Origin: Perkinsus olseni
Taxonomy: Eukaryota
Assembly (NCBI GenBank): GCA_013115125.1
Contig: JABANN010000112.1
Coordinates: forward strand, 50,123-70,122
Direction: 5' to 3'
DNA length: 20,000 bases
Under the pieces are notes generated by a model. It was given only the letters and a program-made list of their open reading frames with translations, searched no databases and was not told the DNA's origin. The position numbers were made by a program, and so were the translations under genes. Positions within the stretch are counted from its first letter, which is position 1, and each line of letters opens with the position of its first letter. This document shows positions 1-20,000 of this stretch, one piece after another.

Positions 1-53
1 GGAACTCCGAAACGGGGGTCCCGGATTCGATTCCCACTGCCTGCATTCATTAC

Positions 54-1912: not shown

Positions 1913-3768
1913 TCACACAAACTCGACCTGAAGGAGTGATAGATTTACACAAAATAAGCGAGCATCAATCCTCGATTCAGTTGGTCCAGAACCGCACGGA
2001 GCTAGACGAATTTTGGAAGACTAGCCAATGACGATTTCAGATCCTTTTCACTAGGACCTATCCCAGAAAATCCGAATGAGTCCGTAGTCATTCCTCAATG
2101 ACATGGTAGTTGTATTCAATAACCCTTATTGAATAGCGCGATGACGGAATGATGTGGTATCATCCACAAGAGAGGTGAATTACCTGAGCCCCAGTGGACT
2201 CCATCTTCTTCTTGATCTCTTCAGCGTGCTCTAAAGGTACGCCTTTCTTGATAACCTGGCATTCACCAGGTGCATGAGTAGCGCACGAAAACTCATATCG
2301 ATTAACCGTTTCACAACTACTAACTGTTCTGGGACCCTAGAGGAACATATGTCTATCAAAGAGCTCCAACGGACTGCTGATGTAATTGGGTAAATTATTC
2401 CGCCCCTCCTCGATCTAATACCGTTGGACATCCTTCCACCGCATCCTTCGCCTCCCGAAGGCCAAGCCCAGTGACTGCTCGGACCTCCTTGATCGTCGTA
2501 ACCTAACAAATGCCATCTCCCAGATTCGAACCGGAGTCCTTTAGATTACCTTCTTCTCTGTATTGTAACTAACCAACTTGATTGTCACGACGCTCTTCGC
2601 AGGCTCTTTCTTCTTCTCGGCCGGCTTCTCCTCAGCCTCCCCACCTCCCTCCGCCGCTGTCGCTTCCCCTGAAACGCATCACACCAACCGTCCCACTCAA
2701 TTCTTATATTAACAAGGCCAGCTACCGGCAGGAGGCGAGGTCGGCTGCTGAGGAGCCCCGCCAGGCATCGGAGTGCCCATCATCATTGGCGAGGGTATCA
2801 TACCACCACCACCGAACATGGCCCCTGGATGGGGGAAGGGAGATCGGCCAGGGACACCTCCGGACCTGACAGGCCCTCTACCCCTTCACAACAGCTCATC
2901 AGATGATACTGCTATACAGCCTCCACAAGTAGTTGAAGAAAACCCATAGCACAGAACGCGTCGTTCTTGCGAACTATCATCGCCATTTATCATGTTACGA
3001 AGTGGCGGCTTGCCTCCAAGCCCACCCCGACGTTCTTGAGGAGGGATACAACCCGAGGAGCATTCCTCATGACCAAGCGTATTCTGCTTGAAACCTAAGG
3101 TGTCACTACCTGGCAGCGAGTTTCTCCTGACATAAGTCGCAGAGATCCGCAGCTTCAATAAGCGACAATGACAATATATCATCAACCAGTTTAATGACCT
3201 AGAAATACCCATCACGGGGTTCGAACCGGATACCATTCGATTACCTTATCAGACGGTTTTCGTTTCTTGGCTTCCCCAGGCGAAGCATCCATCTTTCCAT
3301 CTCCCTTATCTTTGATTTTCGCGAAGACGTCAAAGGAAGAGTCCCTGGCCGGCGCCTCAGCGCTGAATGCTCTCACTGCCGTTAACACGAGCGGAGCCTG
3401 AAGGGGATCTATCACCAAGATTCCGCCTGTACACAAGAGCTCCAGTAAAAGCGTTAGCTTTCCCGCTGTTAAAAGTTTTCCTTATACATCGCGCTGCACA
3501 CAATCAGTGATTGTACCAATTGGACTACAATCGCCAAGTCTCTCAGCACAAAGGGCGTCAGCCAACGCGCCAAGTTTACACACAACACGCTGGCTACACA
3601 CGATCAACAGACACTCAACGATCACACCGGAAGAAAAGTTGGGAAGAAGTACTTCCTGTGCACAATTTTAACGCATCGGATGAGTCCCCGCCCGCCTACC
3701 TGGTAGTATAACCGCCGAGAAATGGCAAAACAAGACCGACGGATAAGGGCTGTTGAGGAACACATCAT
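1913..3768 (-). CDS. MRPL12: Mitochondrial ribosomal protein L7/L12 (bL12m), 8 exons, about 245 aa. Exons 3768-3700, 3397-3245, 3198-3110, 2865-2726, 2668-2550, 2502-2422, 2255-2184, 1927-1913
   Basis: All junctions are GT-AG and phase-consistent (738 nt in total). The translation has an Arg/Ser-rich presequence ([35 protein letters not shown]), the L12 N-domain ([28 protein letters not shown]), a flexible hinge, and the L12 C-domain ([56 protein letters not shown]). Confidence 0.9.
2503..2549 (-). other. 47-nt spliceosomal intron consisting of a tRNA 3'-half-like sequence
   Basis: Sequence GTAATCTAAAGGAC-TCCGG-TTCGAAT-CTGGG-AGATGGC-A-TTTGTTAG. Removing it restores L7/L12 ([12 protein letters not shown]). 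Confidence 0.8.
3199..3244 (-). other. 46-nt spliceosomal intron consisting of a tRNA 3'-half-like sequence
   Basis: Sequence GTAATCGAATGGTA-TCCGG-TTCGAAC-CCCGT-GATGGGT-A-TTTCTAG. Removing it restores L7/L12 (PSDK|VIKLVDD). Confidence 0.8.
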
Positions 3769-5419
3769 GAGAAAAATATCAATAGAACATGGAGCAGCAT
3801 ATTAAAACAGACCATAAACGAGATGGTGTCCACCTGTACACGGAAGACTCACTCAATGTCCCGAGGGAGAACCTGGTCCTACGGACGAGTGCATTCGCCC
3901 CACTGACTCAACTAACGCGGAAGAACTTCTTCGTTCCTGGTTACATGTTGTGGTTCATAGTAAAGCATCAGAATAGGTTGCGATAGGACCTGGAGCGTTC
4001 GACTGATTGGAACGAAATGAGTTCCTCTGCCTGAAGTGGATACGAAGCGTCCGAGGTTTAGGTAGTTATCCCAATAGTAATCCTGAGTAATTTTTCGAGA
4101 AGGGTTTAACTATATTGTAGAAGCACGTTGCAGATCCCACTCCCTGCTTTTGGGACTCTTAACACACACGAGAGCCCGAAGAGATCTCTCTGATCGAGGG
4201 CTTATCAGCGAGTACTTTCCTCTTGCCTAGCAAAGATTCCTCAAACATACGCCACATGATGAAGTCACGTCGGTAAAGCTACCGCACAATGTGAAGCATC
4301 CTTTCAGCGTCATCCCACCTTTCGCGCAGAGATCCACGGCACTCCCGAGTCCCTATAGCTAACAGCAATATCTGGGCGGACTACAAATGAGACCAGCCAG
4401 ATAGGTGGTAGTGAGAGTAATGAGACCGCGCACAATACACCATACGCACTGTGTGGCATCCAACAGTACTTCAAGACAAGATCCCGAGTTCGAATCCCAG
4501 AAGGCCAATCCCAAATATATTCTTCAGTTCATATTCTACGCGCTGACTACGAACGCGTCTCAGTCGGGTCTCACAACAGCCTACGTGGCCGCTGCAGGGA
4601 AGCTCTGGTGAAGAGCACTCAAACTTCCACACGTTATTCGGCGATTCCGACACGGCGTATAATTAGACAGCATCCCCGAGCGGCAGGGTTCGGCGGGAGA
4701 CTTTGAGACAACTGATAGCGGGTCTGTCCGAGAGGCCGGCATCGGAAGACTCCTCACGAAGGAGTGGATTCATACGCGATCGAACCTCCCTGTGGCGGGC
4801 CTTGATCCGAACGAAGCAGGCCCTGCAAAAGGCGACGGGGTGAACCGCGGCGCCCGGCGGAGCCTCGTTAGAGTGATGTCACGAGAACCGATTGGTCCAA
4901 TTAAATCTGATCCGCCCTATATCGTATCTTGCGCGGGCAACTTCGTCAAGCTGCAAACCAAAAATCTTTCTAGGAGATTTCAAAAGCAAGAGGAGGGCAT
5001 ACAACGAGTTTCACTCTGTTAATTCGTAACCGTTGAGTATCTAAGCTTCAACCTTGCAGGATACAAAACAGGTCTGATCCAATTCCCACTCACTCGGAGG
5101 GGCTACTCTAACTGAGAGTTTCTAAGATCGGGATTGGATCAGGTCACTCTAACCCAGTTCACCATAAACCTTCCTTCATGCCGGTTCACTCTGAAGCTCG
5201 CTCAGGCCATTCTACCACCCGACTGGTCGACATAGTTCCCCATATCCCAAGCCCTCCACTTCGCGGCTCCAACAGGTCCAACCAAATGATTTCATCGCGA
5301 GACACAGCACACACAGCCTCCGTTGAGGAAATGCAAGATTGCAAGTGGTTATCGATAGCTAACTGGCATCGACGGCGAGAAAGCCTCAAGAGGCATTCAG
5401 TGACTTCTCCTCTGCCATA

Positions 5420-7600
5420 ATGAGCAGTGTCACATTAACTAACGTATTTTCTTTCGTGCCACCCGTGGTGGGTCTCTTGTGGGCCATCAAGGAGTTGGTC
5501 TATGTTCGCAGCATCAAGCTCGCCGGTCCCTACAAGGGCAAGAACGGCATGCAGGATTCCCTTGTCGCTGGTGATGCTCGTGATGTTCAGAAGATCCTCG
5601 TCGCCATGCGCGAGATCTCTTCCAACATCGCCGAGGGTGCCAATGCGTTCCTCGTCGCCGAGTACAAGTACATGATGGTCTACGTTGTTGTCTTCTCGAT
5701 CATCATCTGGCCCTGCATCGGTCTCGGTACCATGCTCTCTTTCGTCGTGGGTTCCCTCACTTCGATCGCTTGTGGTTACATTGGTATGAAGACTGCCGTC
5801 TACTGCAACGTTCGTACCGCCCACGAGTGCTGGAAGAGCCTCACCGACGGTTATGACGTCGCTCTCCGCGGTGGCTCCGTCATGGGTTTCGCCCTTGTGT
5901 CCTTGGCTGTCCTCAACTTGGCCATCCTCGTCACCATCTACAACATCCCCTCTCTCTACAACGGTGATCTTCGTGCTCTTTACGAGGCTCTCACCGGTTA
6001 CGGTTTGGGTGGTTCTTCCATCGCTCTCTTCGGTCGTGTCGGTGGTGGTATCTACACCAAGGCTGCCGATGTTGGTGCCGATCTCTCTGGCAAGAACGAG
6101 TACGGTCTTGATGAGGATGATCCGAGGAACCCCGGCTGCATCGCCGATAATGTTGGAGACAACGTCGGTGATATCGCCGGTATGGGTGCCGATTTGTTCG
6201 GTTCTTTCGCCGAGTCTACTTGCGCTGCTATGGTTATCTGCTCCGCTGCTCCCGATGCTCTTGTTTCCGGCAGCTGGTCCACCATGTTGTTCCCCTTGAT
6301 GGTCTCCTCTGTTGGTATCATCGTTGGTCTCGTCACCATGCTCACCGTTAACATCTTCTACAAGGTTAGGGTGATCGCTGATATCGAGAAGGCCCTTAAG
6401 GGTGTCCTGGTCATCTCCACCTCCTTGCAGACCCCTACCGTCGTTGCCCTCGCTTGGTGGGCTCTTCCCGCTGGCTACTTCGCCATCGACGAGGCTCATC
6501 CCGCCTGCTCCTGGGTCAAGTGTGCCGTCTGCATTCTCCTCGGTCTTTGGTCCGGTCTTTGCATCGGTTACACTACCGAGTACTACACTTCTCAGACCTA
6601 CAGACCCGTGCGTGAGATCGCCGAGTCTGAGGGTGTTTCTGCCGCTACTGGTATCATTTACGGTCTCGCCGCCGGTTACGTCTCTTGCATCGTTCCCGTC
6701 ATCTGCTTGGCTCTCACCATCTGCGTTGCCCATTCCGTCGCCGGTATGTTTGGTGTTGCTCTCGGTGCTCTTGGTATGCTCGGTACTCTCACCATGTCCC
6801 TCACCATCGATGCCTACGGTCCCATCTCGGATAACGCTGGTGGTATCGCTGAGATGTCTGAGTTGGGCCCTGAGGTCAGGGAGCGCACTGATGCCCTCGA
6901 TGCCGCTGGTAACACCACCGCTGCCATCGGTAAGGGCTTCGCCATCGGTTCCGCCGCTCTTGTGTCCCTCGCCTTGTTCGGTGCTTACTGCGTCCGCGCC
7001 AACATTTCCAAGGTTAACATTCTCGATCCCTGGACCTTCACCGGTCTTCTCTTCGGTGCTATGATGCCTTATGCCTTCTCTGCTATGACTATGAAGTCTG
7101 TCGGAAAGGCCGCCAACCAGATGGTTGAGGAGTGCATGTCGCAGTTCCCCAAGATCATCTCTGGTGAGATGAAGCCCAACTACACCAAGTGCATCAAGAT
7201 CGCCACCGACGCTTCTCTCATGGAGATGATCGCCCCTGGCTGCTTGGTCATCCTCTCCCCCCTCGTTGCCGGTCTTCTCTTCGGTAAGAACTGCACTGCC
7301 GGTCTCTTGTGTGGTGCTCTTGTCTCTGGTGTCCAGATGGCCATCTCCATGTCTAACACTGGTGGTGCTTGGGATAACGCTAAGAAGTTCATCGAAGCCG
7401 GGGGTCTTGGTCCCGAGTGCGGCAAGGGTTCTCAGGCTCACAAGAACGCCGTCACTGGTGATACCGTTGGGGACCCGCTCAAGGATACCTCTGGTCCCGC
7501 TATTAACATCGTTATTAAGCTTTCGGCCATCATGTCTCTCGTCTTCGGTGGCGTTATTGCCAAGACTTCCAACGAGAACGGTGGTCCTTTCTGGTTGTAA
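5420..7600 (+). CDS. VP1: Vacuolar/acidocalcisome H+-translocating pyrophosphatase, K+-dependent type, copy A (726 aa, intronless)
   Basis: Motifs GGGIYTKAADVGADLSGKNE, EDDPRNP, DNVGDNVGD, DAYGPISDNAGGIAEM, LDAAGNTTAAIGKG (Ala at the K+-determinant position), GGAWDNAKK and GDTVGDPLKD, with many hydrophobic helices. Confidence 0.97.
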   Translation: MSSVTLTNVFSFVPPVVGLLWAIKELVYVRSIKLAGPYKGKNGMQDSLVAGDARDVQKILVAMREISSNIAEGANAFLVAEYKYMMVYVVVFSIIIWPCIGLGTMLSFVVGSLTSIACGYIGMKTAVYCNVRTAHECWKSLTDGYDVALRGGSVMGFALVSLAVLNLAILVTIYNIPSLYNGDLRALYEALTGYGLGGSSIALFGRVGGGIYTKAADVGADLSGKNEYGLDEDDPRNPGCIADNVGDNVGDIAGMGADLFGSFAESTCAAMVICSAAPDALVSGSWSTMLFPLMVSSVGIIVGLVTMLTVNIFYKVRVIADIEKALKGVLVISTSLQTPTVVALAWWALPAGYFAIDEAHPACSWVKCAVCILLGLWSGLCIGYTTEYYTSQTYRPVREIAESEGVSAATGIIYGLAAGYVSCIVPVICLALTICVAHSVAGMFGVALGALGMLGTLTMSLTIDAYGPISDNAGGIAEMSELGPEVRERTDALDAAGNTTAAIGKGFAIGSAALVSLALFGAYCVRANISKVNILDPWTFTGLLFGAMMPYAFSAMTMKSVGKAANQMVEECMSQFPKIISGEMKPNYTKCIKIATDASLMEMIAPGCLVILSPLVAGLLFGKNCTAGLLCGALVSGVQMAISMSNTGGAWDNAKKFIEAGGLGPECGKGSQAHKNAVTGDTVGDPLKDTSGPAINIVIKLSAIMSLVFGGVIAKTSNENGGPFWL

Positions 7601-8246
7601 ACGCTGTTCGTATGCATATAGTAAAGCAATAGTACATTTACTTAGTCGCTGTTCCTGCCTTGTTCCTTTCCGATGTGTGTTCGGGTAGGTAGCCGTACAC
7701 TTTTCATCGTGGACTCCTTCATGTCGTGTTTGCAGTCGTCAAAAGGTGCCTGTTAAGGCTGAGGGTCACCAAGCTTTCAGGGAAGGATCGTCCTAGTTTA
7801 CTAGCCAGATGGTCCACAGAACTCACGGATAGCGGACTCTGCTCATCGCCTGGCTCGAGCACAGAGCTTGCCACAGTGATACTCTCAGTTCACTAGTATG
7901 GCAGCGGCAAGTTCTTAAACGAACAGAGCATGTTACGCTTGATGTGGAAGAGACATCTGTAACGAGAGAGAAAAAGGAGCTTACAAAACCATGGACGTAA
8001 GAAAGAATAAACTACCTTGGCGTCAGAACTAAAACTGCACTGAGAAAGACAGATTAGCCTTTGCTCATACTGTTCACCCTTATTGCATGTATGCTGATTA
8101 TACAGTCCTCCAGTAACGTTGAGAAGGCTAAGGCTGGTCAGCGATTCCACCAGAGCTTCTGTTGTGCATCGCTGCGCAGCCCAAGATATCATCATGGTGA
8201 AGATGGTTAAACCTCACACCGTTTGATCGTCTCATCCGTTTTGCAA

Positions 8247-10418
8247 ATGGCGAGCGTTCTTGCAACCAATTTGCTTGCTTTTATCCCACCTATACTAGGT
8301 GTCCTTTGGGCCCTTAAGGAGGTAACCTATGTTAGCCGTATCAAGCTATCCGGCCCTCCTTCGGGTATCCAAGCCTCGTTGATGGGCGACGGAAAGAAGG
8401 TCGACGTCCAGAAGATTCTCGAGCGCATGCGGGACATTTCGTCGCATATTGCGGAAGGTGCCAATGCGTTCCTCGTCGCCGAGTACAAGTACATGCTTGT
8501 TTATGTTGTTATCTTCTCGATTATCATCGGACCCTGCATCGGTCTCGGTACCATGATTGCCTTCATCGTGGGTTCCCTCACTTCCATTGCATGTGGCTAC
8601 ATTGGTATGAGGACCGCCGTCTATTGCAACGTTCGTACTACTCATGAATCCTGGAAGAACATTTCCGCTGGTTACGACGTTGCTATCCGTGGTGGTTCAG
8701 TCATGGGTTTCGCTCTTGTTTCCTTGGGTGTTTTTAATCTTTTCATCTTGGCCTTGATCTACTCCAAGTTCTACGGCAATAACGTTATTGCTCTTTATGA
8801 GGCTCTCACCGGTTACGGTTTGGGTGGTTCTTCCATCGCTCTCTTCGGTCGTGTCGGTGGTGGTATCTACACCAAGGCTGCCGATGTTGGTGCCGATCTC
8901 TCTGGCAAGAACGAGTACGGTCTTGATGAGGATGATCCGAGGAACCCCGGCTGCATCGCCGATAATGTTGGAGACAACGTCGGTGATATCGCCGGTATGG
9001 GTGCCGATTTGTTCGGTTCTTTCGCCGAGTCTACTTGCGCCGCCATGGTCATCTGCTCTGCCTCCCCTGAGGTCGCTGTGCACGGAAGCTGGTCGGCTAT
9101 GATGTTCCCCTTGCTTCTCTCTTCTGTCGGTATTCTTGTCGGTATTGTGACTTTGATGTCCGTTAATATCTTCTACAAGGTTCGTGAGATTAAGGATGTT
9201 GAGAAGGCTCTTAAGGGCATCCTTATCATCTCCACCACTATTCAGACCCCCGTGGCTATTCTCCTTGCCTGGTGGGCCCTCCCCAGTGGCCTCTTCGCCA
9301 TTGACGCCTCTCGTCTCCACTGCACTTGGTGGAAGTGCGCCATCTGCGTCCTTCTCGGTTTGTGGTCTGGTCTCTGCATCGGTAACATCACCGAGTATTT
9401 CACGTCCGACACTTACAAGCCCGTCCGTAGCATCGCTGATGCCGAAAAAATCTCCGCTGCTACTGGTATCATCATTGGTCTCGCCAGCGGATACGCTTCG
9501 ACCGTCATTCCCATCATCTGCTTGGCCATTACGATCTGCGTGGCATTCTCTCTCGCTGGTATGTTCGGTGTTGCTCTCGGTGCTCTTGGTATGCTCGGTA
9601 CTCTCACCATGTCCCTCACCATCGATGCCTACGGTCCCATCTCCGATAACGCCGGTGGTATCGCCGAGATGTCCGAGTTGGGCCCTGAGGTCAGGGAGCG
9701 TACCGATGCCCTCGATGCCGCTGGTAACACCACCGCTGCCATCGGTAAGGGCTTCGCCATCGGTTCTGCTGCCCTGGTGTCCCTCGCCTTGTTCGGTGCT
9801 TACTCTGTCAGAGCTGGCATCAACGTTGTTAGTCTTCTCGATCCCTGGACCTTCACCGGTCTTCTTTTCGGTGCTATGATGCCTTATGCCTTCTCTGCCA
9901 TGACTATGAAGTCTGTCGGAAAGGCTGCCAACCAGATGGTTGAGGAGTGCATGTCGCAGTTCCCCAAGATCATCTCCGGCGAGATGAAGCCCAACTACAC
10001 CAAGTGCATCAAGATCGCCACCGACGCTTCTCTCATGGAGATGATCGCCCCTGGCTGCTTGGTCATCCTCTCCCCGCTTGTTGCCGGTCTTCTCTTCGGT
10101 AAGAACTGCACTGCCGGTCTTTTGTGCGGCGCTCTCGTCTCTGGTGTCCAGTTGGCCATCTCCATGTCCAACACCGGTAGCTCCTGGGATAATTCCAAGA
10201 AGTTCATCGAGGCCGGGGGTCTTGGTCCCGAGTGCGGCAAGGGTTCTCAGGCTCACAAGAACGCCGTCACTGGTGATACCATCGGTGACCCGCTCAAGGA
10301 TACTTCTGGTCCCGCTATTAACATCGTTATTAAGCTTTCGGCCATCATGTCTCTCGTCTTCGGTGGCGTTATCGCCAAGACTTCCAACGAGCATGGTGGC
10401 CCCTTCTGGCTCAAGTAA
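8247..10418 (+). CDS. VP1: H+-translocating pyrophosphatase, copy B (about 723 aa from the ATG at 8247, intronless)
   Basis: Tandem paralog of copy A with the same catalytic motifs. The ATG at 8247 (MASVLATN) aligns approximately with the copy A start, so the track's TTG start at 8223 is unlikely. Confidence 0.95.
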   Translation: MASVLATNLLAFIPPILGVLWALKEVTYVSRIKLSGPPSGIQASLMGDGKKVDVQKILERMRDISSHIAEGANAFLVAEYKYMLVYVVIFSIIIGPCIGLGTMIAFIVGSLTSIACGYIGMRTAVYCNVRTTHESWKNISAGYDVAIRGGSVMGFALVSLGVFNLFILALIYSKFYGNNVIALYEALTGYGLGGSSIALFGRVGGGIYTKAADVGADLSGKNEYGLDEDDPRNPGCIADNVGDNVGDIAGMGADLFGSFAESTCAAMVICSASPEVAVHGSWSAMMFPLLLSSVGILVGIVTLMSVNIFYKVREIKDVEKALKGILIISTTIQTPVAILLAWWALPSGLFAIDASRLHCTWWKCAICVLLGLWSGLCIGNITEYFTSDTYKPVRSIADAEKISAATGIIIGLASGYASTVIPIICLAITICVAFSLAGMFGVALGALGMLGTLTMSLTIDAYGPISDNAGGIAEMSELGPEVRERTDALDAAGNTTAAIGKGFAIGSAALVSLALFGAYSVRAGINVVSLLDPWTFTGLLFGAMMPYAFSAMTMKSVGKAANQMVEECMSQFPKIISGEMKPNYTKCIKIATDASLMEMIAPGCLVILSPLVAGLLFGKNCTAGLLCGALVSGVQLAISMSNTGSSWDNSKKFIEAGGLGPECGKGSQAHKNAVTGDTIGDPLKDTSGPAINIVIKLSAIMSLVFGGVIAKTSNEHGGPFWLK

Positions 10419-11287: not shown

Positions 11288-11319
11288 CGACACCTGAGAG
11301 ATTCGAACTCTCGCGGGCA
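11288..11319 (-). pseudogene. tRNA 3' fragment (Ser-like end: perfect T-arm plus acceptor strand)
   Basis: Minus strand reads TGCCCGC-GAGAG-TTCGAAT-CTCTC-AGGTGTC-G. No matching 5' acceptor strand (GACACCT) or D-arm lies upstream on that strand. Confidence 0.65.
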
Positions 11320-11392: not shown

Positions 11393-11473
11393 GCCCGATT
11401 AGTTCAGCTGGATAGAAAGTCTGCCTAGCAGATGGTCAGCAGATGGTCGTGGGTTCGAATCCTGCATCGGGTA
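11393..11473 (+). pseudogene. Full-length tRNA-like cloverleaf with a disrupted anticodon loop (probable pseudo-tRNA; isotype undetermined)
   Basis: Acceptor stem GCCCGAT/ATCGGGT, D-arm TAGTTCAGCTGGATAGAAA, anticodon stem TCTGC/GCAGA around a 14-nt loop, T-arm GTGGG-TTCGAAT-CCTGC. A-box and B-box are recognisable. An 11-nt tandem duplication (AGCAGATGGTC x2) lies at 11427-11448. Confidence 0.7.
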
Positions 11474-12228
11474 TTGTTTCAGCTCTTCTTGATGCTGCGT
11501 CCTTTCTCGGTGGTCAAGGGTCCAGTCCAGGATGCTGGCCTCGCGAGGTCACCACTATATATACGACCGATACCCGAGTGTAACACAACGACATTTATAT
11601 ATATGATGCCAAGCGGAAGTCGCTAATCTCCAGGTCCACCTCTGCTTTCGCCTGGAGTAAACAAAAGCTATGGCTGTCCTCTGCTGGCTACTATGTAGCT
11701 TCACAGCCGTACACCCCGGCATGCGAAGTCCATTACCCAAGATTCCCAGGCTGGGAAAGATCGCTTGACGTAGGACATGACCCGAATTCTCATTCGTTGC
11801 CGAGGAACACTACAGAATAGCAGGTGCAGGAGTGAGTGTGGAGCGACGGTTCCGCCTAGCTATCGTATAGTAGGGCGCATCGTCTTTGAACACCTCAACA
11901 GCGATGGCTGTTTGCTTGCCATCATCCATGAGTCGCTCCCTCGAGTTGTTGACGGAGTCCTTGGGAGTAGTACTGCATCCGCACCGAATTCGAGGGTCTT
12001 GCCGTGCAGGCCTCCTCGAGCCGGGTTCCGCTTGCTAGCTTCCGTCAGCCGCACGAGAGTTAGATATTCGGGCTCATACTGTGTAACAATGTGATTTTCA
12101 TTTCCCGGTGTCATTTGAGAAGTTCCCTTGTAGCAATCGTGCGTCGGAGCTTTGGCGCGAGCGAAATTGCCGCGCAGAGGCTGTAGGCTGTGCGCAACGA
12201 GCCCCGTAATTTAGAATCGTAGCGGCGC

Positions 12229-12611: not shown

Positions 12612-13749
12612 TCAACGCTGGAGGATTCCTCCATTCCTAGAAGCTGCAGTGCTTGGCGTTGCTACAGCATCACGCCAACGTCCTCGAGGCGTCCATGGCT
12701 GATTCGTAAATGGGCCTCTCGCCGCCTTGCTAGGTCCGCGACCTATCAACCCATCTCCAGAGAAGACGGGGAGCCCTTTTGGTTCGGAATCTTCCTCTAC
12801 CATCTCTTGTGCCGCTCGCTCACAGGACGGACACAGCTCAGCACCTTGCGTCGGAGTGCAGCAGATAACGCACGTACCACTCTCTCGCGGGATCGCGTCC
12901 AGAAGTAGCTCTTGACAGGAGTGGCATATGCCATCGTTCTCGTCTATGCTAGCGTCCACGGGAGATCCACAAGTCACACATTTCCTTGTAGATGGTACGT
13001 GCTGTCTGAGAGGAGCAACACATTCACGACTCGGAACATATCAAGAAGGTTGAATAACGGTCAAGGCCGATCGGGTCCGGATAGTTACAAGGCGCACTGA
13101 ATGGAATGGTAGCGCATGAGAAGCGACTTCGGTGAGACAGTGAACGGTAGCAATCGTGTTGTTGAGAATGATACGATGCCCTCGTAACGAGGGTCGCGAC
13201 ATATGGCAGCAGCTCAGTCCAGTAGACGGTCTAAAATGCCTGACATGACTAGTGGGAATGCCAGGAAGGGAAGCACCTCATCATTCGCTGAGCATGCCCT
13301 AAGAAACCGAATTTGGCAAGATACGAGCCATCCTCACTTACGTGGCATGCGTGAAAGTCTCTATGGCGGACTTCAATGCTCTATTGGGGACAACACGTTG
13401 GCTTCTCAGTGGAGCGTTGGTGAGGGGATCGATCTTAGGTCTTCTGAAACTCATAATCAATAGTCCTTGGCGCCGATCACTGCCATCAGGTGCCAAGCCG
13501 AGCGTGCTAATCTTATCATGAGATTCGCGGATGGAGTGGTAGGAGATTCTCATACCACTCCATCCGCTAATCTTCTCCTCGGGTTCACCATGCAAGCTCC
13601 TACCTTTTGAAGGCATTTCTGAGTGCCGAGCGTTCGTAAGTGAAGCCGGTCTCGACTAGCGTGACGGGGTCGGTCATGAGCTCCTGTGTGATAGGACACT
13701 CGAAGGACTCCACCAGCTCCTTCAAAAGGGCCTCATCGTCACCATCCAT
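12612..13749 (-). CDS. U-box domain protein (putative E3 ubiquitin ligase) with downstream CxxC pairs. Exons 13749-13604, 13443-13342, and a large exon at about 13003-12612; middle exons and 3' end unresolved
   Basis: Spliced translation MDGDDEALLKELVESFECPITQELMTDPVTLVETGFTYERSALRNAFKR-RPKIDPLTNAPLRSQRVVPNRALKSAIETF matches the U-box consensus. The downstream exon has CVTC...CHSC and CVIC...CPSC; its linkage to the U-box exons is inferred. Confidence 0.75.
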
Positions 13750-14096: not shown

Positions 14097-15344
14097 TCAA
14101 TCTCTACTTCCACTTCGGCTCCTGTTTCTGCTGTCCTCTCTCACGCGCGACTTCGACTCCTTCCTCGGCGAATGGCTGTAAGATCTCGACGAAGACCTGC
14201 TCGAGCTGGGACTCCAACGGTCGCGGCTGTAGCTCCTCCGACGTTCTCTGAACCTCCTAGGAGACACCGGCTTCCTCCACCTCCCGCGCACCTCATCGCG
14301 GATACGACTCATCACGATCGAGCTGGGGTTGCGACAATCAGCGCGGATGAGCAGATCGGGCCCGAAGACACGAGAAAGCTGCTCCTGACTGAGCTCCCTC
14401 AATCTGTCCTCGCACTCCGCGTCCAGGCTGTAGCGATCGCACATATCAGATACCGACACTCTGTGGTGACGACTTCTACTTCTCGATCTCGATGACGATC
14501 TCGAGTAGGAACGATCCCTCGGTCGACGCCGACTCTCGCGCGCTGCCACCCTACGTCTGAAGGCCATATCATCTACCTTCCTCTGCACCACCCTCTTCAC
14601 GCGAATCCCCACATATTTCTGAGGAATTCTGATATCCCTTCTAGACCTGACATCCTGGTTGATCGAGTGGACCGTCTCGTAAAGGACGTCCTCGAGGAAC
14701 CTCCTGCCCGATCTGTCCAGTACCGAATACAACAATCTCATAGTCAAGGAATCGTCTAGGAAATCCTCAGCCTCCACAATACGTTGCTTGTGTATCGCAT
14801 CATCTACCACCTCTTCAATAACTTTATCCAAGTCCCCTCGGCTATCCGCGCGGTCCCTTCTCATCACCCTGGGCTTGGTTCTATCAACGTCACTCACGTC
14901 GCTGCTCGATTCTGATCTCGATCGAGAGTCTCTGCGCTCCTTAGGAGCTTCTTCCTCAGTGGCATCCTTTCTACTCGAAACTGACCTGCTGCGAGATCTC
15001 TTCTCATCACCTTCCTTCCCGTGGTCAACTCGGCGACTCTTCGATCGTGATTTCTCAACGCTCTTCGAGGCGGATCTATCAGCGACCTCCTTAGAACGAC
15101 TCTTTTCGACCGATCTCGAGCGGGAGTCCTTACGTTCCACAGAACGCTCGCGCTCTGAAGATTTGCGGTCAGCCGGAGAACGGTCTCTCGAGTCCGACCT
15201 GTCTCTCTTCTCAGATCGACCCTCCCTACGACCTTGACGAGATCCAGACCTCGAATAGCGCCTGAAGGCCTCCGAGCGACGACCACGACTGCTGCTGCGG
15301 CTTCTTCTGCTGCTCATGCTTCTGCTGCGACTCCTGCGGGCCAT
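14097..15344 (-). CDS. RS-rich protein, paralog 1 (415 aa, intronless), with two helical domains
   Basis: Long ATG-started ORF with RS/SR-rich termini. Its non-repetitive core is homologous to the two neighbouring ORFs. Confidence 0.85.
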   Translation of the reverse strand: MARRSRSRSMSSRRSRSSSRGRRSEAFRRYSRSGSRQGRREGRSEKRDRSDSRDRSPADRKSSERERSVERKDSRSRSVEKSRSKEVADRSASKSVEKSRSKSRRVDHGKEGDEKRSRSRSVSSRKDATEEEAPKERRDSRSRSESSSDVSDVDRTKPRVMRRDRADSRGDLDKVIEEVVDDAIHKQRIVEAEDFLDDSLTMRLLYSVLDRSGRRFLEDVLYETVHSINQDVRSRRDIRIPQKYVGIRVKRVVQRKVDDMAFRRRVAARESRRRPRDRSYSRSSSRSRSRSRHHRVSVSDMCDRYSLDAECEDRLRELSQEQLSRVFGPDLLIRADCRNPSSIVMSRIRDEVRGRWRKPVSPRRFRERRRSYSRDRWSPSSSRSSSRSYSHSPRKESKSRVREDSRNRSRSGSRD

Positions 15345-15681
15345 GATTTAGAAGATAGGGAGGAATGGAAGAAGTAGAAGAAGTTCTGCCACTCGACAGG
15401 ACCATAAGCCTGGATTGATCCCTGATGACGGCTTTCCGAGAGTCGCCCTCCTTCCCGAGGGGGCCAGACAAATGATTCCTACCTTACAGAGTAGCGATTA
15501 CTCGGTGCTGCATCATCTAAGGTAATGAAAGCAACCCAATGCGTATCCACCCAGGATCAACGTAAGATTCTCTCTCGCGTGAACTCGGCGAATCTCTCTT
15601 AGCTAGAAATATTAAACGTCCCCTACCATTGTCATAAAATCATACGTATCCAAGCTTGATGCGGCAAAGATACAAGACAGG

Positions 15682-16380
15682 TCAAGTTGACCGAGATCTA
15701 CTCCTGCAATAGCTTCTGCTTACCACGTCCGGCAATCTGCCCCGCATCTCATCTCTAATTCTGGCCATGATCAGACTGCTCACGTTCCTACAATCGCGAT
15801 GGATAATCAAATCACCTCCACACACTCGTTGTAGCTGCTCTTGATTCAACCTCTTCAGTCTCATCTCGCACTCAGCATCGACGCCGTACTTCCTGGCGAA
15901 CTCCTCCACGACAACTCTTCTACCAGGCTTCACACCAGACAATGATCGAGATCTCGAAGGCTCTCTTCGCCGCGCCCTTCTCGGCGACAACCCCATATCC
16001 CTTCTCCTAATAGACCGTTTCACTCGAGCCGCCACCAGCCGCCCTGGGTGGCTAACCTCCCTCCGACTACGGAAATCTCTCGAGATGGAATCGATCGCAT
16101 CATCAACGACCTCTTGGACGAAGTTGGGCCCGTGGATGCGAAAGCAATGAAGCAAGCTCTCCACCACATCTTGATCATCAGTAAAATCCTCAACGTAAAG
16201 GGTGATCCTCGAGTCCTTTAAACTGCCGTCAATGATATCCTCAACACGATCATACGACGATCGCGCACGCCCCGGTGATCGATTATCATTGTTATTCCTT
16301 GTTCTAGAGCGACTCCTACTTCTGTTGCTGCTGCTGCGACGGCTGCGACAACTCGAGCGAGACCTCGATCGGGAGGGCAT
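15682..16380 (-). CDS. RS-rich protein, paralog 2 (232 aa, intronless)
   Basis: Shares VEDFxDD...GxxFVxEVV...IxSIxxDxRSRREVxxP and YGVDAECExRLxxLxQEQLxRVxGxDLxIxxDCRNxSSxxMxRIRDExRGR with paralog 1. Confidence 0.85.
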   Translation of the reverse strand: MPSRSRSRSSCRSRRSSSNRSRSRSRTRNNNDNRSPGRARSSYDRVEDIIDGSLKDSRITLYVEDFTDDQDVVESLLHCFRIHGPNFVQEVVDDAIDSISRDFRSRREVSHPGRLVAARVKRSIRRRDMGLSPRRARRREPSRSRSLSGVKPGRRVVVEEFARKYGVDAECEMRLKRLNQEQLQRVCGGDLIIHRDCRNVSSLIMARIRDEMRGRLPDVVSRSYCRSRSRST

Positions 16381-16732
16381 TCCAAAGACGGTAGAAAACT
16401 GGCAAATATGTGTCCGACTCCAAAGCGTGAAACTTCGGGGGCAATCTCTCCAAGCTGAGACCTAGCTCTCGCATCGAACAACGTTAAGGGAGAACTTATG
16501 GACTAACTGTATGACGCTGAAGGAAAAGATCGGATAGCAACTTACCCATACGGTAGGAGGCTCGGATCATCGTCATCTCACGCCATCTTACCGAGACTCC
16601 TTAAGAGGCTAGATGGCATCTACTCAGGATGCAAGACAGAAGAAAAAATGGCCGAGAAGAAGCCTTCCTCCTCCTCCTGCTCACCCGCCCAGACGCAACA
16701 CCATCACATGCCTCAAAATCATCAACTACCGT

Positions 16733-17437
16733 CTACGAGCGAGACCTGCTCCTATGTCGCCTTCCACTCTTGGATCTCATATCCAGTCGGTCTTCTAAAC
16801 GCCTTCTGCCCTCCTCACCCTCCCCGATATCCTCACACACCTTCCGCAATTGACGTTGGGTCAGCGACCTCAACCTCTCCTCCATCCTATCATCACTAAT
16901 TTCACATTTTTCCATCAGTTTCGTCACCGAAATCTTCTTGGGTGGGCCCGACCTTCTCCGTTCATCTTCCATGTAGCGCATAATTCTATTGACTCTGATG
17001 CCGGCAAACTTGTGCGGTACTAAGATATCTCGACGATCTCTGACGTCGAAGCCGATAGAGTGCAGAACCTCCTCGATAAGCTCAACCACGAAGGAGCCGC
17101 CATATCTCGCATAACACCCCTCAAGATTCCTCATAGTCAACCTGTCCTCGATGAAATCTTCCAACTTCAAAAGATTCGTTTTTTCTACAGCGTGCGCAAC
17201 ACAGGCCTCCAGATCCTCTCTGTCGGCCCGGCGTCTCCGCTCCCTCGGATCGCTCGGCGATCTACCCCTCGATGGACTTCTCTTCTCAGCCGTATCTTTG
17301 ACCTCGGAAGATTCCTTCGGTGAATTGTCGGCCGACTTGGATGGCGTCCTCTTGCCGTTCACAGCGCTGCGGGACGGCGAGCTTCTACTCCTGCTTCGGC
17401 TGCTGCTGCTCCTGCTGCGGCTACTGCTGCGGGTCAT
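16733..17437 (-). CDS. RS-rich protein, paralog 3 (about 234 aa from the ATG at 17437, intronless)
   Basis: Starts MTRSSSRSRS. Core LEDFIEDRLTMRNLEGCYARYGGSFVVELIEEVLHSIGFDVRDRRDILVPHKFAGIRVNR aligns with the paralogs. The second domain is truncated or diverged. Confidence 0.8.
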   Translation of the reverse strand: MTRSSSRSRSSSSRSRSRSSPSRSAVNGKRTPSKSADNSPKESSEVKDTAEKRSPSRGRSPSDPRERRRRADREDLEACVAHAVEKTNLLKLEDFIEDRLTMRNLEGCYARYGGSFVVELIEEVLHSIGFDVRDRRDILVPHKFAGIRVNRIMRYMEDERRRSGPPKKISVTKLMEKCEISDDRMEERLRSLTQRQLRKVCEDIGEGEEGRRRLEDRLDMRSKSGRRHRSRSRS

Positions 17438-17896
17438 AGTCACGGCAACAATAAGCGCTGAAACGAATCTTGACGATCCGACACAATCACAATGAGGACG
17501 ATACCTCGACAAAGTCGCCTACTTCATACCACGGATCATGCAGTGTTGAACGGGACGACCTTAGATACTTCACGTACGGTACTGGAGAAGCTGAGAATTT
17601 CGGTCAGTAATCCGACGTTTTTCATATCCAGCGTTCCTTGACCTAGGATACCCTCTTGCGCTATCACGTATAAGCTAGAAAGGTCCTCGGATCAAATCTA
17701 TGCAGACCCATTCTGAAGTATCAGCGAGTTGCAGCATCCTTCGAGAACTCAACACGACGATAGGCGATGCAAGAGTAAGTACGGCGGTTGTAAGAAACGC
17801 AAATCGATCAACCGTTTCATATCTGCGCTCGAGAACAGTAAAAACTTGTCCGAATAGTTCAACGCAAGGATCGAACTATAGACGATATCATCACAA

Positions 17897-19426
17897 TCAA
17901 TCGGTCTTCTTATCAGCCTGGTCGGCCCCTTTTCCCTCCATCACATCTTTCCCATCAACAACACGATCGACTACAATACTTATGCTCGGAACACCTGAAG
18001 GATATAAATACGTGTGAAGCAGCAACGAAGACAACGCTGTGATCAGCCACATAGTGTAACCGAACTAACGAATCACCGGAAGCAGGTACCATGCTCAAGT
18101 ATGCTCAATCATTATAGGCTCTTGCTATGCAAAAAATGAGCTCCCCCAAGCAGGAGAGACTCAACCTAACGAGCCTAAATCGGCGATACGAAGGGTTCTG
18201 GCGGTAGCGCGGGAATTGCACACTGCTGAGTAAACAGGCTCACGATGATAGTTTTCAGAGGTGGACGATGGATTGGAGGGTCGGAAAAGAGATGGCATGA
18301 TCAGAGGTCAGAAAGGTCTGATTATATCGTCCGAACTGGAAGAGGATTCCAACCGGGACCGCGATGTAGCTCGGCGTACGCAGATGCAATGGACAATGAA
18401 CAGATTTCATAGATGTACAATGGACTCGGTAGATGCGAAATTTCGAGTGTTGGTAGGCAACACGCTAAACAAGATTAAAGGCAAACACGAAGCAGCCGGG
18501 AGACTTAGCGAGATGGGTGACGTTAGATTTCATCATCCGCGAGACCCTGGGTTCGATTCCCCCTTTTACCATGCTCCTCACTAGCCCTTCCTGCGGGATA
18601 GTCAGGTCTAACCATCACCACACCGGTCTCGATGTTGACAATTTTACCAACACCTGCCGACTCAGCCGCGGTAGCAGCAGCAACGGCATAAGTGATGGCA
18701 GCCGCGAGACCGGTCACTTCAACATGCTCAACTGGCTTCTTAGCAGGGAGCTCACCTTTGGCCTGAAACAGGAAAAAAGATACTCTGCACACTGTAATCA
18801 GCTCGTCCGCAGAGACGCGCATATCGGACAAATCTGAGCATCTCGGACATCTAAACTAAGTTGAAGACATCTCACGAACTAATCCAGTAAGAAAGCCGTC
18901 GAACTCTCAAGGCTTACAACTCTCATGCGACGAAGGCATAATAAAATGCCGAGCCAACTCCATTCGCACAACTGCCATTGTGACCCTATTTTCAAGGTCA
19001 CACTCCGAATCACCAGCGCTCTAGGTTCGAAACCGCCCAAATTACGATAGACAACTAGATCTTTGCGATCAATATAGAATCTATACGTATCAACCACCAC
19101 TCGGGGTGAGAATGATAGGACGTGGCGCTACGCGAGATGTGTTCCCACACTACCGGCATGCCCTTCAAGAAGTTCTGAACGGCTCGGATATAAAAATTGG
19201 CTGAGTGCTTCGACGTACAGCGAATAACGGGCCTGAGCAGGATGACGAGGATGAGTTGAATGAAGATATCCTGCACCTCGAAACTCAGTGCATTAGAACA
19301 GAGCAAGGACGAGCTTCCTCGATCGAATAGTGAATAATAAACCTCCCCTCAAGTGACGTTGGATTGCAGCGCTACGATCCACCAGATGCCACCATAGACT
19401 TACATATCAGCGTCGGCGTTCGCCAT
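17897..19426 (-). CDS. Alba-family DNA/RNA-binding protein, 4 exons, 126 aa. Exons 19426-19404, 19232-19154, 18762-18582, 17994-17897
   Basis: Phase-consistent GT-AG splicing (381 nt) gives MANADADMPVIRCTSKHSANFYIRAVQNFLKGMPAKGELPAKKPVEHVEVTGLAAAITYAVAAATAAESAGVGKIVNIETGVVMVRPDYPAGRASVPSISIVVDRVVDGK... This fits the Alba pattern (FY helix, VxxxGLxxAIxxAVxxA, KIxxIxT, PxIxI), recalled from apicomplexan Alba3-type proteins. Confidence 0.8.
18535..18571 (+). pseudogene. tRNA 3' fragment, antisense within Alba intron 3
   Basis: ATCCGCGAGACCCTGGG-TTCGATT-CCCCCTTTTACCA, with B-box GGTTCGATTCC. It ends 10 nt from the intron donor at 18581. Confidence 0.55.
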
Positions 19427-20000
19427 CTTTGGAGAGGGTAAATTAACGAGGGATTGGTAGTAACGAAAAAACAAATGCACAAAGTCTTGAAATCTTGCTA
19501 GCTTGATGTTTCTCCACGTCTGCGCGTTCAGGGGCTCGCGTTCAAGATAGGACTCTGAGTGCGTGTTCAGTGTAATTAAGTGACTGTAGTCATCGTGAAT
19601 CGGATGGTTGGAATCATTTTGAGACAGGCCATCTCTACGAGGGTCGTATCTTGTGGAGCAGCGTGCCTCGTTGAGAACATCGCCTTACGAGCGATTAGTA
19701 GCATCAGATCAGCCGACGCGTTGTCGTTCTTAATGGGCATGATACAATTCGGCAACTTTGCTCGTCGCAACTTTAGGTCACGTTGCCCAGACGTGCCTCA
19801 GCGCACAATTCAGCGACGTTGCTCTTTCTTGACTCACACTCAGCGACCGGCTCTTCACGGCAATATCTAGGTCGCCGCTACTTTTCCCGTCTTGCCGACC
19901 AATTCCTTCCAACTTGCTCTTTTTCGGGTCTCGTGTTGCGGTTTTTCTTAAAATCCTACAAAAGCGACGCGTGCGGGAATTGAACTGGGGGTCTTTTCAC

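Follow-up and report, generated by a model that had tools for sequence, protein, structure and literature searches.

Two short introns of one gene in Perkinsus olseni resemble each other from splice site to splice site, and both resemble the 3′ portion of a transfer RNA (tRNA) gene. They lie in a mitochondrial-type ribosomal protein L7/L12 gene on contig JABANN010000112.1 (assembly GCA_013115125.1), within a stretch of 20,000 nucleotides (nt; contig positions 50,123–70,122, forward strand) that we call the window and whose own numbering we use throughout. We named intron 2 of this gene (3199–3244) I2 and intron 5 (2503–2549) I1. The two introns are real and mutually similar, their similarity is confined to the introns, and both are like tRNA 3′ halves, in the same register and with the same boundaries. 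These findings suggest that new introns can be made from tRNA genes. The most likely route, which we put forward tentatively, is that a unit derived from a tRNA gene was copied as an intron within the L7/L12 gene.

Evidence for splicing came from contigs of four public runs, one recorded as RNA and three guessed to be RNA. I1 and I2 were spliced out in contigs of all four, at joints 2502>2550 and 3198>3245 with GT..AG ends; the I2 joint as mapped was 3196>3243 in every run (a cut displaced by +2), and its boundary was then fixed to the splice site. By RNA joints the seven introns of the gene measure 302, 46, 244, 57, 47, 166 and 256 nt, in phases 0, 0, 2, 1, 0, 0 and 0. The spliced frame of 738 nt encodes 245 amino acids, with a presequence-like N-terminus and a single terminal stop. 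Keeping I1 or I2 in the transcript leads to an early stop; their removal is required for an open frame. Pfam domains continue across both junctions: exon 3, downstream of I2, matched PF16320 (E 1.8e-4, profile positions 4–28 of 48), and exon 6, downstream of I1, matched PF00542 (37.7 bits against a cut-off of 25.9, profile positions 14–38 of 67). Both introns are in phase 0, stand in an AAG/GT context (the slash marks the junction) and are followed by an exon that begins GT. I1 and I2 are genuine GT-AG introns of the U2-type spliceosomal kind; because GT-AG ends are common to all the other introns, the spliceosome is the simple reading, over a tRNA-type (bulge-helix-bulge, BHB) intron.

A separate observation concerns exon 5, within which a contig in three runs matched only from position 2623 upward. 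Below that point (on the plus strand, before 2623) the contigs continue into 56–97 unrelated letters. The cause may be a chimeric path of the assembly across a Glu/Lys-rich stretch, or a second transcript that shares the piece.

Our intron set comprises 15 of the 17 joints detected in the window, all GT..AG and on the minus strand, seven of them in the L7/L12 gene. All 15 RNA-supported introns begin GTA and keep little else at the 5′ end: positions +4 to +6 vary, and ATC occurs there only in I1 and I2. At the 3′ end 12 have CAG, one has AAG, and two, I1 and I2 alone, have TAG. The splice consensus of the window is weak, amounting to GTA...YAG. Lengths range from 46 to 575 nt, with four introns below 60 nt and I1 and I2 the shortest; Perkinsus introns have been reported at 39–1622 base pairs, mostly below 100 (PMC3101222). 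The 3′ ends of the 15 introns, read by eye, have TGAT/TGAA-type motifs ∼15–20 nt ahead of the 3′ splice site. Candidate branch motifs are GTGAT in I2 and GAGAT in I1, each then followed by TTT, 9–20 nt before the 3′ splice site.

Aligned without gaps from the 5′ end, I1 and I2 are identical at 30 of 46 positions, and at 29 of the first 42, with GTAATC, GG and TCCGGTTCGAA at equal offsets and then ATTT...TAG. With gaps, 35 of 48 columns agree (73%). None of 20,000 shuffles that kept GTA...AG reached their global score of 19, and their local score was the highest among the 105 pairs that the 15 introns form, despite these being the two shortest introns. The initial annotation had proposed the collinearity, the shared phase and the AAG/GT context, with GT starting the next exon; the alignment bears out the first, and the RNA joints and spliced frame the others. 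It had also considered that the general splice consensus might account for the similarity, an explanation that fails with a consensus of GTA...YAG only and no shuffle at the observed score. The 11-mer shared by the two introns has six window matches with up to two mismatches, against 6.4 expected, and is unremarkable alone. The significant part is the collinear similarity along the entire intron.

The flanking exons do not take part in it. Anchored at the introns, exon sequences are identical at 9 of 30 positions upstream and 9 of 30 downstream, and local scores are at shuffle level. With a likeness that begins and ends at the splice sites and flanks that are unrelated, segmental duplication of exon plus intron is ruled out. 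Exon 3 also weakly matches the L12 C-terminal profile (E 0.028); in that alignment I1 and I2 sit two codons apart, so an internal repeat of the protein is no explanation either. Two introns that share a specific source at non-homologous sites fit intron gain.

Collinearity with tRNA 3′ halves

As controls we used 31 distinct tRNAs of one bacterial genome (37 ARAGORN predictions at 30 loci, identical ones collapsed), taking as the 3′ half nucleotides 35–73 with the register set by the T-loop. Mean identity to these 31 halves is 19.7/39 for I1 and 19.8/39 for I2, and real tRNAs of different isotype share 20.8±3.2 of 39 (442 pairs). The 2,816 39-mers of the other 13 introns gave a mean of 9.7 and a maximum of 16.4. 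When a profile hidden Markov model (HMM) of the 31 halves was run over the window, the one genuine tRNA gene ranked first (E 9.8e-6), I1 second (0.0019) and I2 fourth (0.0082), the alignments to both introns beginning at intron base 2. Any match as good as that of I2 appeared in two of 100 dinucleotide-shuffled windows. The tRNA-half character ascribed to I2 and its partner by the initial annotation thus holds for both. It does not hang on the T-loop: with 13 columns around the T-loop masked, I1 and I2 still ranked 50 and 128 among the 39,924 39-mers of the window, at scores of 10.3 and 9.8 against 11.1±1.3 for real tRNAs (leave-one-out).

The Rfam tRNA model (RF00005) matched I1 at positions 34–71 of 71, as a 5′-truncated alignment with 16.1 bits (E 0.17, 4,227 families). 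A scan for T-arm hairpins found three in the window, among them that of I1, against 0.69 expected; five of 300 shuffles reached three. A model built from I1 and I2 together had one other window match below E 0.01, which was the 3′ half plus trailer of the genuine tRNA gene (E 0.0033).

On alignment, both introns run collinear with a tRNA, starting in the anticodon loop and reaching the discriminator base, and then have TTTGTTAG (I1) or TTTCTAG (I2) as a putative T-rich trailer. They end 7–8 nt past the discriminator base; the tRNA likeness starts at nucleotide 35, so no A-box region is included, and ARAGORN found no full tRNA gene at either intron. In this register the GTAATC of I2 covers the two bases that end the anticodon, then A37 and A38, and enters the 3′ anticodon stem. 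Three of the 31 control halves begin GT in the same register, all of them tRNA-Thr. This suggests either that the source was Thr-like or that the GT came from elsewhere.

Do I1 and I2 share more than a generic tRNA likeness? Across all 39 register columns they agree at 26, a value reached by 24 of the 442 different-isotype pairs; with the T-loop masked they agree at 16 of 26 (reached by 23 of 442), and in the 5′ part at 12 of 16 (reached by 5 of 442). Same-isotype pairs are identical at 22–37 of 39. Judged by these identities, I1 and I2 are related like two tRNAs of one type, beyond generic tRNA likeness, and their similarity is too low to require that one be a copy of the other.

Including the tRNA gene, the window holds six tRNA-3′-half-like matches at E ≤ 0.05 and nine at E ≤ 0.5; shuffles gave 0.09 and 0.46. 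Of the five at E ≤ 0.05 outside the tRNA gene, three are in introns, I1 and I2 in sense and 18539–18562 in antisense orientation; the fragments outside I1 and I2 are listed in Table 1. The Rfam tRNA model had no match at 4370–4530 or 18440–18600, where there was at most a 13-nt match to the T-loop of transfer-messenger RNA (tmRNA).

The genuine tRNA gene at 11393–11482, the sole one in the window, offers a direct comparison. Its 3′ portion (11435–11482) reads GTC...A-TTGTTTCAG, is laid out like I1 and I2 and resembles a 48-nt intron. We rejected this gene as the specific source of I1 and I2, since the best bacterial tRNAs resemble the introns at least as closely. ARAGORN annotates the gene as Leu(CAG). 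It carries a tandem repeat of ∼11 nt in the anticodon region (CAGATGGTCAG/CAGATGGTCG), and it can alternatively be read as having an AGC anticodon and a 7-nt tRNA intron, so its isotype is uncertain. Perkinsus marinus is reported to carry five types of tRNA gene in more than 500 copies, and five families of transposons (Dada) in that species insert in tRNA genes at the A box (PMC3706591). We rejected Dada transposons as the cause of the I1/I2 boundary, since their reported insertion is at the A box (TAGCTC) and not in the anticodon loop (PMC3706591).

Routes of origin

In the scheme we favour, I1 and I2 would each derive, along their full length, from the 3′ part of the same type of tRNA gene. 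This part would have begun in the anticodon loop, at nucleotide 35, taken in the variable loop, the T-arm, the 3′ strand of the acceptor and the discriminator base, and ended with a T-rich trailer. GTA from the anticodon-loop region would have become the 5′ splice site, GTA being all that the window introns share there; the acceptor-strand stretch G(A/T)GATGG may have supplied the branch region, and the terminator-like T-run plus AG the 3′ splice site. An exact intron-sized unit would then have been placed twice, at AG/GT sites within the L7/L12 gene. It could have moved if the excised intron reverse-spliced into its own transcript at a second AG/GT site, and the product was reverse-transcribed and then recombined. 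The identical start and end points within the tRNA, with no stray bases in the conserved exons, suggest that the moving unit was already intron-sized, and the finding of both copies in one gene and none among the 13 other introns speaks for local copying. Introns duplicated within a gene while the exons stay single have been described as a class (PMC3609843).

Several points weigh against this scheme. The Rfam score of I1 lies below the gathering score of 29, I2 alone had no Rfam tRNA match at E ≤ 10, and the T-arm hairpin scan did not return I2, whose T-stem has decayed and is no longer complementary. All control tRNAs come from one bacterial genome. I1 and I2 match the window's own tRNA at 23/39 and 25/39, near their mutual 26/39, and with only two copies that differ at about a quarter of positions, common descent is not separable from two captures. 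We know of no demonstration of reverse splicing in the source organism. The absence of extra copies covers 20 kb and says little about the genome; Amoebophrya, a relative, has been reported with tens of introners in one gene (PMC12130899).

It is possible, though we doubt it, that I1 and I2 instead belong to a genome-wide family of tRNA-derived, introner-like insertions at AG/GT sites in many unrelated genes. AGGT might then be a target-site duplication, a reading we find just as doubtful, in which the element proper would start at tRNA nucleotide 37/38 and stop where the trailer does. Such a family would account for a similarity confined to introns with identical boundaries, and for AGGT at both ends of I1 and I2. 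If GT and AG came from the target, the insert would start AATC..., close to tRNA 37/38; eukaryotic tRNA introns sit at nucleotides 37/38. The enrichment of tRNA-3′-half fragments (five non-gene matches at E ≤ 0.05 against 0.09 expected) speaks for it as well, as do the introner families reported in related alveolates, several per gene (PMC7789003, PMC12130899), and the tRNA gene numbers of P. marinus cited above.

Against a family stands the search for a third copy: besides the tRNA gene, the model of I1 and I2 had no match in the 20 kb, whether among the 13 other RNA-supported introns or elsewhere. We also scanned with the strict 21-base pattern shared by the two introns (GTAATCNAANGGNNTCCGGTTCGAA), which had one match each in prokaryote genomes and in Joint Genome Institute (JGI) metagenomes, the same bacterial coding sequence in both and no tRNA; these scans did not return I1 and I2 themselves, so the two loci are absent from the metagenome set. 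No terminal inverted repeats were found in or around I1 and I2, and their predicted folds have no terminal stem. Folding z-scores were +0.45 and −0.78, and we rejected a stable RNA structure of the kind seen in introner-like elements (ILEs). Those of fungi are reported to be longer and more structured (PMC3609843), and I1 and I2 are the shortest introns here and just 73% alike. A tRNA-derived introner was not found in print, including the part of a 2024 review covered here (PMC11282704), supplementary species tables being outside our scope; the main text of a 2025 introner survey (PMC12130899), whose supplements were likewise outside scope, contains none of the words 'tRNA', 'SINE' or 'Perkins'.

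The AGGT repeat is no evidence for a target-site duplication, because it is common among the window introns. The exon after the intron starts with G in 12 of 15 cases and with GT in seven, the exon before it ends AG in six, and both hold in four of 15, so that AG/GT is found at both ends in these; junction ambiguity is at least 4 nt at seven of the 15 joints. Of the introner-type gain suggested in the initial annotation, the part that stands is the similarity confined to introns at non-homologous sites. The duplication is not supported, and no further member turned up within 20 kb: the profile of the two introns, searched within the window as the annotation had advised for the genome, recovered only the real tRNA gene.

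Two independent captures are an unlikely alternative. Pieces of similar tRNA genes, or the 3′ ends of unprocessed pre-tRNAs after copying into DNA, would have been inserted during repair of two breaks in the L7/L12 gene, and only inserts that supplied GT...AG at AG/GT sites would have survived as introns. The I1/I2 similarity is within the range of same-isotype tRNAs, each intron resembles the real tRNA of the window almost as much as it resembles the other intron, and the 3′ portion of that tRNA plus its trailer already reads GT...TTTCAG. The introns have also kept different tRNA features, I1 a paired T-stem and I2 ATGGT and GGGTATT, as in the real tRNA, and tRNA genes are very numerous in the Perkinsus lineage (PMC3706591). 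Captures would, however, need two inserts with identical tRNA start and end points and no extra bases in conserved coding exons, and two rare events would both have to fall in the L7/L12 gene. The agreement of the 5′ parts at 12 positions, which few different-isotype pairs attain, also speaks against them.

The remaining reading, that the introns have no common origin and owe their likeness to chance or to a selected motif (a B-box-like TFIIIC site or a splicing signal), is very improbable: the invariant core GGTTCGAA is the B-box/T-loop consensus, B-box-like 11-mers number 9 in the window against 1.02 expected, and the 3′ third (GATGG...TTT.TAG) could represent a branch site with T-tract and acceptor, but the tRNA likeness survives masking of the T-loop, no shuffle equals the I1/I2 score, and the other T-loop-like sites of the window lack an Rfam tRNA-model match. 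The intron half of a spliced-leader (SL) RNA was set aside as an origin, there being no SL gene in the window; Perkinsozoa SL exons are reported to end AAG with a G/GTA boundary (PMC9399869), and the SL RNA of P. marinus to be 80–83 nt with the boundary G/guag (PMC3101222).

Should the copying scheme hold, an entire intron would be recognisable as a piece of a tRNA gene, in which the anticodon-loop GTA, the T-rich terminator and AG double as splice signals. There may, with some doubt, be a wider class, in which 3′ tRNA portions (approximately the 3′ exon plus the RNA polymerase III (Pol III) terminator) act as ready-made introns in this perkinsid. It is equally tentative that such pieces, at AGGT sites, bring or complete GTA, branch region, T-tract and AG, with I1 and I2 as two visible members of a class that is possibly mobile, in a genome already rich in tRNA gene copies. 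If true, this class would be an undescribed introner source that links Pol III genes to intron gain. Recurrence across the genome would identify tRNA genes, with their hundreds of copies and their own transposons, as a source of introns, and would provide a datable, sequence-traceable system of intron birth in the sister group of dinoflagellates. A merely local pair would still be a clean case of within-gene intron duplication without exon duplication.

Other features of the window

Coordinates of the introns, their parts, the adjoining exons and the tRNA-like sequences are collected in Table 1.

Table 1. Positions of the L7/L12 gene, its two short introns and tRNA-like sequences in the window
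Feature	Position	Strand	Basis or remark
Coding region, mitochondrial-type ribosomal protein L7/L12 gene	1913–3768	(-)	8 exons and 7 introns
Exon 2, 51 codons, 5′ of I2, ends ...GAT AAG	3245–3397	(-)	RNA joints and open frame
I2, intron 2 of the L7/L12 gene	3199–3244	(-)	46 nt, GTAATC...TTTCTAG, phase 0
5′ splice site GTAATC of I2	3239–3244	(-)	tRNA register nucleotides 35–40
T-arm-like core TCCGGTTCGAAC of I2 (T-stem 5′ strand and T-loop)	3219–3230	(-)	exact 11-mer common to I1
GTGAT, likely branch region of I2	3211–3215	(-)	putative; in the stretch matching the tRNA acceptor 3′ strand
TTTCTAG, T-run and 3′ splice site of I2	3199–3205	(-)	in the place of the tRNA 3′ trailer, Pol III terminator-like
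Exon 3, 3′ of I2, codes for the L12 N-terminal (dimerisation) helix	3110–3198	(-)	Pfam PF16320
Exon 5, 5′ of I1, ends ...GAG AAG AAG	2550–2668	(-)	RNA joints and open frame
I1, intron 5 of the L7/L12 gene, partner of I2	2503–2549	(-)	47 nt, GTAATC...TTTGTTAG, phase 0
Intact T-arm hairpin of I1, TCCGG-TTCGAAT-CTGGG	2519–2535	(-)	5 pairs, two G-U
Exon 6, 3′ of I1, part of the L7/L12 C-terminal domain	2422–2502	(-)	Pfam PF00542
Genuine tRNA gene and trailer (comparator), outside the L7/L12 gene	11393–11482	(+)	ARAGORN; Rfam 45.7 bits
Further tRNA-3′-half-like fragment	4473–4504	(+)	E 0.0043
Further tRNA-3′-half-like fragment	18539–18562	(+)	E 0.018
Further tRNA-3′-half-like fragment	13–44	(+)	E 0.022
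Further tRNA-3′-half-like fragment	19968–19993	(-)	E 0.13
Further tRNA-3′-half-like fragment	11295–11312	(-)	E 0.42; perfect 5-bp T-arm at 11296–11312

Near the L7/L12 gene are two tandem intronless genes for H+-translocating pyrophosphatases, at 5420–7597 (+) and 8247–10415 (+), with PF03030 scores of 788 and 782 bits. The product of the first is 96% identical to one named P. marinus protein, its best named relative, and 76% to a second; the first identity marks the window as DNA of a Perkinsus-like alveolate and not of a fungus. RNA contigs of all four runs cover this gene, and one run has a poly(A) loose end at 7711.

Two introns elsewhere in the window have features of their own. The 575-nt intron at 17995–18569 holds GCGGATGATGA at 18518–18540 (-), with a C-box-like start and a weak match to an archaeal C/D-box small RNA (13.5 bits, the gathering score being 54), perhaps an intronic small nucleolar RNA and perhaps a chance match. 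In the 163-nt intron at 13441–13603 (-), a near-perfect hairpin at 13521–13573 has 26-nt arms, 92% complementary, and a 1-nt loop, with only weak microRNA-precursor-like Rfam matches.

Three intronless frames rich in Arg-Ser repeats follow on the minus strand, at 14100–15347, 15685–16461 and 16733–17518, all with RNA contigs over them. A conserved core is common to them, with stretches such as ...CRNPSSIVMSRIRDE... and ...CRNVSSLIMARIRDE... Pfam gave no match for the first two, which were the ones scanned.

Comparison with known systems

The origin of new spliceosomal introns is still debated, and the known sources are mostly transposons. In Daphnia, new introns are reportedly flanked by short direct repeats at AG/GT-like sites, with unrelated inserts (Li et al. 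2009), and we know of no tRNA-derived filler from that work. Gain by repair of the Daphnia type would share the AG/GT-like sites with I1 and I2. Set beside tRNA genes (Rfam RF00005), I1 and I2 are collinear with nucleotides 35–73 plus a terminator-like trailer. Unlike tRNA genes and tRNA-derived short interspersed nuclear elements (SINEs), they have no 5′ half, A box, cloverleaf or tail like that of long interspersed nuclear elements (LINEs).

Introners have been described in Micromonas, Aureococcus, fungi and dinoflagellates (PMC9860276, PMC12130899, PMC3609843). As in I1 and I2, the intron is the inserted unit, it occupies unrelated positions and the likeness ends at the splice sites; one of these can be provided by short direct repeats at the junctions. 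[quoted passage not shown] Dinoflagellates, among them Amoebophrya, are the sister lineage of Perkinsozoa (PMC9399869). The introner elements of Amoebophrya are reported to be repeated genome-wide, with direct repeats of 3–5 nt across exon/intron boundaries, and repeated intron-boundary sequences are mentioned for dinoflagellates in the same paper (PMC7789003). The Amoebophrya elements have inverted repeats of 8–20 nt that bring the two intron ends together, and are mostly non-canonical; the ends of I1 and I2 are canonical GT-AG and not inverted.

Fungal same-gene intron duplications (SGDs; Collemare et al. 2013, PMC3609843) are also similar introns at different sites of one gene, the situation of I1 and I2 within the window. 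About half of them are reported to have no duplication of flanking exons, and they have ordinary intron length and no special fold, as here. Their authors propose intron transposition within the same transcript (PMC3609843). SGDs are near-identical by BlastN, against 73% for I1 and I2, they come from fungi and not an alveolate, and no tRNA origin is reported for them in the part of that paper covered here. Intron duplication and intron gain are thus known in themselves; what the L7/L12 pair would add is their occurrence from a unit derived from a tRNA gene.

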